Made by a program: the position numbers and the translations under genes. Under the pieces are notes generated by a model. That model ran no database searches and was not told the origin of the DNA. It was given only the letters and a program-made list of their open reading frames with translations. Of a stretch of 6,577 nt of DNA, positions 831 through 1,772 are shown piece after piece; within the stretch, counting starts at the first letter, position 1; each line of letters opens with the position of its first letter. Where the stretch lies: UHGV virus genome UHGV-1437364; one strand, given 5' to 3'. Origin of the DNA: a virus.

Positions 831-1050
831 CGGGTCCTTCCTGGAATTATGGACCCGTTACGGGGCGGCGACCTCGCGGTTTTTATCTGTTTATGAAAAT
901 TTTTCTGGAAAAAGCATGTCGGTACTTCTCGAACATAACTATTTGTTTTTAAATAGATACACAATAAAAAGAAACGACACGGTAATCATCTAAAATGGCG
1001 ATTTATGACGCTTTCATGTCGTTTCTCAGTTTTGTTCAATAATTGCGCGT
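831..1050 (+). other. Lambda-type cos site (cosQ-like, cosN, lambda-like cosB), plus orientation, with no TerS gene downstream
   Basis: cosN GGGCGGCGACCT at 863-874 is preceded by GGGTCCTTCCTGG...CCCGTTACG, resembling the lambda right end. The following 885-1050 resembles the lambda left end (TTTATGAAAATTTTTCTGG, CATAACT...TTTTTAAATA). R-site-like inverted motifs GAAACGAC (971-978) and GTCGTTTC (1018-1025) are present. Confidence 0.75.
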
Positions 1051-1053
1051 CTG

Positions 1054-1596
1054 TTACTCGCCTTTCTTCTGTAGCAACTTTTCCGGTACGTTTCCGGTTG
1101 TTTCTTTCAAGTAATCAGCCAGTATCTGTGGGAGGTTGTCGGCAACTCTGGCACTGGCATTACAGGCTTTAACCACTTCCCTTTTAAGCCTATCCAGCAT
1201 GGCGGGGGTAATCTGTGGGAAGCTCCTTTGCATAGTAAGCGGGAGGCTGTCCATGATTGATGAAATCTGACTCGCCAGCTTTGAAAGCGCGTACAGGCAA
1301 AACTCAGTATCAATCACGTCACCGCGATCGCGCTCGTTTTTAAGTTCCTGCGCCTCCGCCTGTGCTGTCAGTAATCTGATCCTGACTCGTAAGAGTTCAT
1401 CATCATCAATATCGCCTTTGTCGTTTGTAAGCTGGCTAATTGCATTGTTAACCCTATTGTCTATCACGCTGGCAACATCGTAAAACGCCTCACGGCCTTT
1501 ACGTTCAACGGGAGTCACTCCCCACTTGTCGAACGCTGTCGCACTTACACGGCAGCTTTTCGCCATGTTTTTTTTGTTCATCAGGTGCGATTTCAT
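1054..1596 (-). CDS. Terminase small subunit, lambda Nu1 family
   Basis: The C-terminal two thirds align clearly with lambda Nu1: RLLTAQAEAQELKNERDRGDVIDTEFCLYALSKLASQISSIMDSLPLTMQRSFP versus RLTRAQADAQELKNARDSAEVVETAFCTFVLSRIAGEIASILDGLPLSVQRRFP. The N-terminus is related but divergent: MNKKNMAKSCRVSATAFDKWGVTPV versus VNKKQLADIFGASIRTIQNWQEQGMPV. The true start may be Met6 (1581..1579), which aligns with the Nu1 N-terminus. Confidence 0.85.
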   Translation of the reverse strand: MKSHLMNKKNMAKSCRVSATAFDKWGVTPVERKGREAFYDVASVIDNRVNNAISQLTNDKGDIDDDELLRVRIRLLTAQAEAQELKNERDRGDVIDTEFCLYALSKLASQISSIMDSLPLTMQRSFPQITPAMLDRLKREVVKACNASARVADNLPQILADYLKETTGNVPEKLLQKKGE

Positions 1597-1772
1597 TAAT
1601 ACACCAACTTAATTACTGCTTCAGGTTGGTGTATTGTTTGCATCTTTCCCTTTTCATTCATAAAGATAGAGCAAACAACAAAACCACCACCACCCCCCTG
1701 AAAAAGCTCATAAATAGCGAAAAACCGCGAGGTCGCCGCCCCGTAACGGGCCATAATTCCAGGAAGGACCCG
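1597..1772 (-). other. Lambda-type cos site (cosQ-like, cosN, divergent cosB), minus orientation, directly upstream of the Nu1-like gene
   Basis: On the minus strand this reads GCGGGTCCTTCCTGGAATTATGGCCCGTTACG-GGGCGGCGACCT-CGCGGTTTTTCGCTATTTATGAGC. cosN is at 1741..1730. The first ~35 bp after cosN match the lambda left end, after which the sequence diverges (G-rich tract GGGGGGTGGTGGTGG, then the palindrome). Confidence 0.75.
1598..1635 (-). promoter_or_regulatory. Perfect 11-bp inverted repeat AATACACCAAC-N16-GTTGGTGTATT abutting the TerS start codon
   Basis: Arms at 1598-1608 and 1625-1635 are exact reverse complements. The element sits in the divergent cosB-like leader immediately 5-prime of the TerS ATG (1596..1594). 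Confidence 0.4.

Follow-up and report, generated by a model that had tools for sequence, protein, structure and literature searches.

Positions 831 to 1772 of the UHGV virus genome UHGV-1437364, a stretch of 6,577 nucleotides that we refer to as the window, hold a gene for a small terminase subunit (TerS) of the Nu1 family between two lambda-type cos sites in inverted orientation. The minus-strand site, which precedes the gene, corresponds to cos1 of the phage-inducible chromosomal island (PICI) EcCICFT073, and the plus-strand site, which faces the 3' end of the gene, to cos2; both names are used throughout. We found that the segment is the packaging cassette of an island of the EcCICFT073 family, catalogued as EcCIATCC25922 and also present in Nissle 1917. 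Comparison with related islands showed that the segment between the cos sites flips in nature, and that islands swap cosB alleles, and also the gene in the middle, as cassettes.

The two cos sites share their outer parts. An earlier note on this DNA, made from the letters alone, had described near-identical inverted blocks at 831-883 (+) and 1721-1772 (-) that differ by one indel. Direct reading and a repeat finder confirmed this: the sole difference between 831-883 and the reverse complement of 1721-1772 is an extra A at 853, and the repeat finder returned arms of 50 nt (854-903/1701-1750, 88% identity) and 25 nt (831-855/1748-1772, 96%). The similarity continues to 903/1701, through the I2 region. 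The cosN sequence GGGCGGCGACCT is present in both arms, on opposite strands, against a chance expectation of 0.00 in 200 shuffles. Lambda-like phages require the cosQ-cosN-I2 part both to cut DNA and to end packaging. In lambda, 21 and N15, cosQ, cosN and I2 suffice for packaging termination independently of cosB, while cosB determines the specificity of initiation, that of N15 being distinct from that of lambda and 21 (PMC4669245). The window thus holds two cosQ/cosN sites with divergent cosB regions flanking a specificity gene, which is the two-cos module of EcCICFT073.

At cos2, the elements cosQ, cosN, I2, R3, an inverted R2 and a direct R1 stand at the canonical offsets of a lambda-type cos, and cleavage is predicted; here and at cos1, R sites were assigned by position and analogy. 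The R3 is of phi21 type, with the same offset as in phage 21. The site is collinear with phage 21 through I2, R3 and I1, and its inverted R2 and direct R1 are most like those of PhiR5_1, the phage with the closest cosB. The earlier note had called this cosB lambda-like. It is indeed of the canonical R3-I1-R2-R1 type, but lies nearer to phage 21 (R3, I2) and PhiR5_1 (R2, R1) than to lambda. The note had also placed the junction between this cosB and the TerS 3' end exactly where lambda Nu1 would start, and rightly so, as the cosB ends at bp 191 from cosN, the Nu1 start point, and the TerS stop codon (1054-1056) occupies bp 192-194.

At cos1, the canonical cosQ, cosN and I2 are followed by direct R-like repeats at bp 48 and about bp 134 and by an inverted one at bp 110, and cleavage is again predicted. 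As the note had stated, the minus copy leads through a divergent cosB into the Nu1-like gene; we found this cosB to be specifically N15-like. N15 has a single critical R3 at bp 48-59, GAGGTTGTTGTT (GAGGTT-GTTGTT) (PMC4669245). The cos1-type cosB is almost invariant among TerS-type islands. Searches with short R-site patterns gave many chance matches and were filtered by cosN context, so that the following statements on phages cover the matches listed: the cos1-type cosB occurred only before PICI TerS genes in PICI-sized stretches, no related locus had an open reading frame (ORF) of TerL size (at least 300 aa; TerL, large terminase subunit) after the cos1-TerS module, and the arrangement was not seen in ordinary lambdoid prophages with an adjacent TerL. 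The phage N15-type R3 is followed by gp1 and a 640-aa TerL. Since lambda- and 21-specific terminases package N15-specific DNA at only ~1e-4 (PMC4669245), cos1 should be private to the island TerS.

The TerS protein matched the Pfam family Phage_Nu1 (PF07471) with E = 2.3e-23 and 83 bits (cut-off 30), which places it among Nu1-type small terminases with predicted TerL binding; no TerL is encoded beside it or elsewhere in the island. It aligns over its full length with Nu1, phage 21 gp1 and N15 gp1, and N15 gp1 is the closest phage TerS (46% identity, compared to 39% for lambda Nu1 and 35% for phage 21 gp1). Residues 1-52 are 62% identical to N15 gp1 versus 33-43% to lambda, 21 and PhiR5_1. Residues 81-140 are 67% identical to the PhiR5_1 TerS versus 47-50% to the others, and residues 141-180 show 44% versus 27-35%. 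By these alignments, TerS is a mosaic of an N15-type DNA-binding domain and a PhiR5_1-like C-terminal part, the latter predicted to serve assembly and TerL binding. In the viable laboratory hybrid lambda-N15hy4, a swap of the N-terminal domain and cosB switches packaging specificity while the lambda TerL partner is kept (PMC4669245); the island TerS is its natural counterpart. A sequence search of the PDB with TerS gave no meaningful match, including to the Nu1 and RppC chains. We also considered TerS as a member of the Rpp family, whose proteins have about 144-153 aa and a Nu1-like DNA-binding domain, lack a TerL-binding C-terminus and form heterodimers with the helper TerS. This assignment was rejected, given the length of 180 aa, 17% identity to RppA, the full-length Nu1-type alignment and the 83-bit Phage_Nu1 match.

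The window is an untrimmed short-read assembly, since it begins (1-47) and ends (6531-6577) with a perfect 47-nt inverted repeat of Nextera mosaic end, adapter and 8-nt index (CTAGTACG), which is not biological. The genuine insert (48-6530), whose far end falls inside the primase gene, is 99.7% identical to the Nissle 1917 chromosome with just two differences: 17 bp are deleted at 630/631, and position 4191 has a 1-bp indel. The cos region matched finished genomes at 100%, including Nissle 1917 and ATCC 25922, and positions 600-2000 were covered to at least 80% in 486 complete E. coli genomes. In Nissle 1917, the island of about 11 kb adjoins tRNA-Pro between yejM and narP. It encodes an integrase, small regulators including a helix-turn-helix protein, a D5-type (D5_N) primase, a single-stranded DNA-binding protein (SSB), a 68-aa protein, a gpE-like capsid protein, a gpD-like decoration protein, a 137-aa protein, a 'terminase small subunit' and a 93-aa protein; neither annotation nor Pfam revealed TerL, portal, tail or lysis genes. 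The ATCC 25922 copy (CP009072.1:116041-117458) lies inside the interval CP009072.1:106749-118031, listed as the 11.3 kb PICI EcCIATCC25922 in Table S1 of Fillol-Salom et al. 2018 (PMC6092414). The island measures about 11 kb, has an integrase at an attachment (att) site, a regulator and a primase with replication origin, and lacks genes for lysis, tail, portal and TerL; these features make it a Gram-negative cos-type PICI. It is not a capsid-forming PICI (cfPICI): only gpE-like, gpD-like and TerS proteins are present, and the complete head module (portal, protease, TerL, connectors) is absent.

The earlier note knew of no described satellite with this layout. This was wrong, since cos1 and cos2 of EcCICFT073 form the same inverted pair and the island of the window is itself catalogued; the layout is a published feature of a known PICI family. 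In EcCICFT073, taken from the CFT073 genome, the two cosN copies, at + 2559 and - 3298, enclose rppA (c1503, 144 aa) in inverted orientation, and by the sequences printed in Fig. S1A (PMC6739421) cos1 is the site next to rpp and cos2 the distal, inverted one. Both islands share the gene order (68 aa, major capsid protein, decoration protein, 137 aa, cos, specificity gene, inverted cos, 93 aa), an identical cosN, two cos sites with different cosB regions and a gene-proximal site matched to the specificity protein of the island. They differ in the middle gene, which in the window encodes not RppA but a full 180-aa Nu1-family TerS with a TerL-binding-like C-terminus; as this C-terminus resembles the TerL-binding part of phage proteins, helper TerS should not be needed. 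In addition, the cos1 motif of the window is opposite in orientation to ACCACCACC, the proposed R3-PICI, and is followed by further repeats, and the cos2 allele is phi21/PhiR5_1-like, not ATGTCCGG. When cloned, each EcCICFT073 cos site mobilises a plasmid; the RppA-TerS complex recognises cos1, the site needed for transfer by lambda and phi80, and deletion of both sites abolishes transfer (PMC6092414, PMC6739421). Helper-induced excision, replication and high-frequency transfer have been shown for EcCICFT073 only (PMC6092414, PMC6739421).

Among the explanations offered in the earlier note was a segment invertible by recombination between the repeats, and finished genomes supported it with both orientations of the TerS and RppA cassettes. 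Five complete genomes covered to 99% a synthetic junction of the flipped TerS cassette (93-aa-side arm, cos1 cosB and TerS start). The annotation of 2014C-4587 (same proL site) and of PM4-5 (different site) puts TerS on the strand opposite the capsid operon, and window 831-1772 aligns there in reverse between collinear flanks. The corresponding synthetic RppA junction was matched 424/424 in 15 complete genomes versus 68 in the CFT073 orientation; in WP4-S17-ESBL-08, an island at the same phoPQ site encodes identical RppA and 93-aa proteins with rppA reversed. Cassettes without an intact gene flip as well, with four loci in one orientation and five in the other; in reverse complement, the interiors of two of them (L029 and L043) match from end to end with 98.3% identity. 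The loci L046 and L048 have flanks that are 99.7% identical and cassettes of opposite orientation.

In all flipped loci, position-specific cosQ variants stay in place while everything from about +5 after cosN is exchanged, so that the breakpoints fall in a 25-30-bp identical core, CCCGTTACG-GGGCGGCGACCT-CGCG. Both arms of locus L077 share a private cosN variant (GGGCGTCGACCT) between arm-specific cosQ and I2 markers, which points to a conversion tract that was very short and did not extend beyond the cohesive-end region. The cosN core is the longest identical block in every flipped locus, and homologous recombination and cut-and-rejoin by terminase are therefore indistinguishable; the flips may arise by rare homologous recombination in this core. 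No site-specific invertase was found nearby, as the neighbouring 137-aa, 93-aa and TerS ORFs lack a recombinase domain. At least five inversion events are independent, and many of the flipped genomes are probably clonal. Within strains, orientation was uniform: at least 10 Nissle-derived and four CFT073 assemblies agreed, and none was among the flipped-junction matches, which argues against a high-frequency programmed switch.

We surveyed 80 IMG/VR loci collected by the conserved 137-aa protein, and an inverted cosN pair followed the 137-aa gene in at least 52 of them. Sorted by cosN spacing, in counts that include the window itself and CFT073, 24 loci hold TerS (864-868 nt), 12 RppA (739 nt), 8 an RppB-like gene (759-760 nt), 9 no intact gene (524-530 nt) and 1 a chimeric gene (625 nt). 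At least six cosB classes occur on both cassette sides, each with repeats at about bp 50 and about bp 110 (inverted) and usually a third at bp 140-190. Class T is linked to TerS and class R to Rpp; class X (ATGTCCGG) is found at cos2 of EcCICFT073, class M has the exact N15/Monarch core GGTTGTTGT, class S has CAGATCC, and the cos2 of the window is of class H; there is a phage 21-like class as well. Class X is a genuine phage cosB: in phage context, at least 38 loci have it before a phage TerS of 169 aa. A search for a phage origin of the CAGATCC-type cos2 allele gave chance matches only. TerS-type islands alone carry three different cos2 alleles. Between islands, cosB alleles and the middle gene are swapped as cassettes. 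In L010, L415 and L433 the second cos has a different, Stx-like (Shiga toxin phage-like) cosN and is still inverted; inverted placement is therefore conserved even without homology between the arms. A scan of one genome per species with the 137-aa protein gave no confirmed relatives.

Two further kinds of locus deserve mention. A phage TerS N-terminus (VATQTEVARHL...) is fused to an Rpp C-terminus in L053 and is truncated before the 93-aa gene, behind a single cos with the cosN GGGCGGGAGCGG, in L074, L076, L080, L083 and L085; these are scars of recombination between islands and a lambdoid phage group. Four TerS-type loci (L374, L423, L415 and L433) have the same cos1 cosB with other cosN sequences (GGGCGGAAGGCG, GGGCGGCAGACG) and a different upstream context; types of cosN and of cosB seem to be combined independently.

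Our preferred reading, which we consider probable, is that the locus is a dual-specificity, invertible packaging cassette with two head-to-head cos sites, shared arms and different cosB initiation regions. A dual packaging-site design had been among the proposals of the earlier note and gains support from the pairing of an N15-like R3 with an N15-like TerS domain at cos1, from the helper-type cosB at cos2 and from the function of both EcCICFT073 sites. After induction, the island TerS would bind cos1 and bring the helper TerL to cosN through its PhiR5_1-like C-terminal part. Packaging would start at cos1, pass through terS and continue around the concatemer until the next cos1, following the Rpp logic of EcCICFT073 with a complete TerS in place of Rpp and no need for the helper TerS. 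Because cos2 carries a helper-phage-type R3-I1-R2-R1 cosB, the helper's own holoterminase could initiate there and package in the opposite direction. The inverted orientation would hide each site from a terminase scanning from the other, with no termination there, because cosQ lies on the wrong side for the scanning enzyme. Exchange between the inverted arms would flip the cassette, harmlessly, instead of deleting the specificity gene. Cutting at both sites of one unit would excise the 0.87-kb segment, which could explain better transfer after cos2 removal with some helpers.

It is also conceivable, if rather unlikely, that the inverted cos pair is a recombinase-free inversion device in which terminase acts as the invertase. 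A helper terminase would cut both cosN sites on the excised island, leaving the fragment with the identical 12-nt 5' overhang GGGCGGCGACCT at both ends and the flanks with its complement, so that the fragment could re-anneal and be ligated either way. With every flip, the packaging polarity that belongs to each cosB would be reversed, terS or rpp would be turned round, and mutations in cosN would pass from one arm to the other. Such cutting and flipping would explain the breakpoints in the cosN core, the cosN variant shared by both arms of L077 and precise flips with about 25 bp of perfect homology.

Several observations weigh against the dual-specificity cassette. We found no phage with the exact cos2 allele of the window in IMG/VR or INPHARED: within IMG/VR, the I2 variant and the combination of a phi21-type R3 with TGTCGTTTC at R2 and R1 occurred in PICI contigs only, and INPHARED matches were partial, the best being PhiR5_1 (82% over bp 1-117). 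Prophages of PhiR5_1 type are rare (26 genomes cover at least 80% of the PhiR5_1 cos-terS query), and Nissle and ATCC 25922 were not among the 40 best-scoring records listed for this query; no resident helper was identified in either strain. The R3-position repeat of cos1 is unlike the N15 R3 at the critical bp 54-59, and that TerS binds cos1 and pairs with a helper TerL is something we infer from homology and position only. The genome and IMG/VR samples are clonally redundant, and the counts of flipped and unflipped loci are not event frequencies. Finally, deletion of cos2 in EcCICFT073 raises transfer by lambda and phi80 (PMC6092414, PMC6739421), and cos2 is absent from five TerS-type islands (L023, L034, L044, L047 and L073) and truncated in L071; cos2 is therefore dispensable and may be costly.

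The last two findings would suit a reading in which cos2 is a functionless leftover of recombination with a helper, the inverted repeat is accidental and only cos1 and TerS matter. A footprint of such recombination, the remaining proposal of the earlier note, is supported by the mosaic TerS and by the phage terS N-termini fused to rpp or truncated at the 93-aa gene in other loci (L053 and the L074 group). We nevertheless doubt that cos2 is a mere remnant. Most islands keep a perfect cosN, cosQ and I2 together with three intact R-type repeats at canonical spacing; at least three complete cosB alleles occupy cos2 in TerS-type islands, a pattern that resembles replacement of alleles rather than decay; islands with a non-homologous cosN still keep the inverted position; and the cloned EcCICFT073 cos2 works, with a double deletion needed to abolish transfer. 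Inversion might alternatively be a programmed phase variation in which frequent flips toggle expression of TerS or Rpp and hence interference with the helper. Both orientations of three cassette types in nature would fit such a switch, as would the common orientation, in which the gene is co-directional with the upstream capsid operon, yet we regard it as improbable. There is no invertase gene by the repeats, the sole recombinase being the island integrase about 9 kb away, the Nissle-derived and CFT073 assemblies all keep one orientation, and the flipped TerS junction was found in five genomes versus 486 with the orientation of the window. Dependence on read-through is doubtful, given the terminator-like hairpin between the operon and cos1, and no promoter was resolved in a scan of 600-2300.

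An assembly chimera, or the end of an ordinary defective lambdoid prophage, can practically be set aside. The window is a raw short-read contig with untrimmed Nextera adapters at both ends, and inverted repeats can cause misjoins; however, the repeat is shorter than a sequencing read, and both junctions, for which the earlier note had proposed a check, are identical in hundreds of finished chromosomes, which rules out an assembly artefact at the inverted repeat. A prophage end is contradicted by the integrase, primase, origin iterons and capsid homologues, by the lack of TerL, portal, tail and lysis genes and by the lack of a TerL after the cos1-TerS module among the matches listed.

With the phage N15 (PMC4669245), the cassette of the window shares the TerS DNA-binding domain (62% to gp1) and a G/T-rich triplet repeat at bp 48-59, and gene-less and RppB-type cassettes share the exact core GGTTGTTGT at bp 50. 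In contrast to N15, the cosN of the window has the lambda form and not the N15 form GGGCGGCGTCCG, R3 differs at bp 54-59, extra inverted and direct repeats give cos1 a complex cosB like that of the 'Monarch' group, no TerL follows TerS and the C-terminal two-thirds of the protein are not N15-like. Compared to the lambdoid cos regions of lambda, 21, PhiR5_1 and Stx2_112808, cos2 is collinear with 21 and then PhiR5_1, and a third site described below with the Stx2 phage, but no terS-terL operon follows either of these sites and cos2 abuts the antisense 3' end of TerS. Pathogenicity islands of Staphylococcus aureus (SaPIs) represent a headful (pac) system of Gram-positive bacteria in which a separate Ppi protein blocks the helper TerS. 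SaPI TerS proteins likewise are satellite small terminases that redirect the helper TerL to the satellite's own packaging site (summarized in PMC6739421), whereas the island studied here is of cos type and has its recognition site inside an inverted cos pair. Like the Hin, Gin, Cin and Fim systems and shufflons, the cassette is a short segment between inverted repeats found in both orientations in natural isolates; unlike them, it has no dedicated invertase, its repeats are terminase cleavage sites and its orientation is stable within a strain.

Genes for virulence and defence travel between enterobacteria on PICIs, whose packaging site decides which phages can mobilise them. The findings recast the unexplained second cos of EcCICFT073-type islands as half of a modular, invertible cassette. 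This cassette would combine a helper-type site with a private one for which the island provides its own Rpp or TerS, and draw on at least six interchangeable cosB specificities and an optional third site. Such a view gives testable predictions on helper range and on the purpose of cos2, and predicts that packaging specificity evolves by joint swaps of the DNA-binding domain and the R site. If cutting at both cos sites did drive the flips, this would be a new way of inverting DNA. As the island is present in the probiotic Nissle 1917 and the reference strain ATCC 25922, experiments are easy to set up. In the searchable literature, we did not find the inverted geometry and natural flipping of the cassette, a mosaic N15/PhiR5_1-type TerS that replaces Rpp with a matched N15-like cosB, cos2 as a swappable helper-type cos with at least six circulating cosB classes, or the optional third, Stx-type site. 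Orientation, inversion and a TerS-encoding variant are not mentioned in PMC6092414, PMC6739421 or the commentary by Murialdo & Feiss (PMC9026076).

Table 1. Features of the packaging cassette and its surroundings in the window (predicted from the sequence).
Feature	Position	Strand	Details
Conserved 93-aa gene flanking cos2	533..797	-	Frameshifted in the window by the 17-bp deletion at 630/631
Left arm, cosQ-cosN-I2 part of cos2	831..903	+	cosQ core 832-844, cosN 863-874, I2-like 875-903
cosB of cos2, complex, helper-phage type	904..1053	+	R3 CATGTCGGTACTTCTC 915-930; R2 core inverted 971-979; R1 core TGTCGTTTC 1017-1025
Island small terminase, Nu1 family, 180 aa	1054..1596	-	Position held by rppA in EcCICFT073
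cosB of cos1, island-specific, N15-like	1597..1700	-	R3-position repeat GGTGGTGGTGGT 1683-1694 (bp 48-59 from cosN)
Direct GTTGGTGT copy in cos1 cosB	1601-1608	-	Just before the TerS start codon
Inverted repeat GGTTGGTGT in cos1 cosB	1624-1632	reads on +	bp 110-118
Right arm, cosQ-cosN-I2 part of cos1	1701..1772	-	cosN 1730-1741, cosQ core 1759-1771
Hairpin and T-run GCCGGAGAAATCCGGCTTTTTT	1774..1795	-	End of capsid operon, directly upstream of cos1; read from the sequence
Capsid-like operon	1802..3836	-	68-aa protein, gpE-like major capsid (351 aa), gpD-like decoration (111 aa), 137-aa protein; upstream of cos1
Third cos-like site, Stx-phage type	4069..4234	-	cos1 orientation, upstream of capsid operon; terminator hairpin 4213-4234
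Third site, cosQ-like GGGTCCTCCTGG	4199-4210	-	
Third site, cosN-like GGGCGGGAGGCG	4169-4180	-	
Third site, further motif GTCATCATCATCAT	4125-4138	-	
Third site, further motif GATGATGGTTGTGGTT	4069-4084	-	

The gene order of the capsid-like operon matches c1499-c1500 and their neighbours in EcCICFT073. The hairpin at its end is kept in all related loci and reads as a terminator; a promoter and terminator consensus scan of 600-2300 resolved no promoter, scored only the cosN palindromes and missed this hairpin.

The third cos-like site (4234-4069, minus strand) is collinear with the cos region of the Stx2d phage Stx2_112808, which there lies between the lysis genes and terS-terL. The phage cosN is GGGCGGGCGGCG, compared to GGGCGGGAGGCG in the third site, and 17 of 82 related loci, of all cassette types, have such a site at the same position. 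Since its cosN-like sequence is unlike the lambda type, the site would need a different TerL. The island TerS showed no relation to the TerS of the Stx phage whose cos the third site resembles (E = 0.17). The 1-bp indel relative to Nissle at 4191 falls between the cosQ-like and cosN-like parts.

The 17 bp missing at 630/631 in the 93-aa gene read CGCGGATCCGTATGTTG in Nissle 1917; a strain variant or an assembly error is possible. Matches to the PhiR5_1-like cos and TerS in E. coli genomes H166-H176 (e.g. NZ_CP027579.1:1283703-1284310) had only a 'terminase small subunit' annotated beneath them, without TerL. These loci may be further satellites with another TerS type, and 2013C-4282 among them also holds a flipped TerS-type island. 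Positions 4999-5219, which directly follow the stop codon of the primase gene (5236), contain eleven iterons of the type GGTAGA(C/T)AG, some in each orientation; it is at this position that replication origins of PICIs are described. Near the end of the island that lies opposite the integrase, the sequence CGAAA(A/G)(T/A)ATCAAC(G/C)(G/A)GTTA occurs three times, at 364, 463 and 517 (window 359-540). The triple repeat recurs in related islands downstream of the 93-aa gene and may represent arm-type recombinase binding sites.

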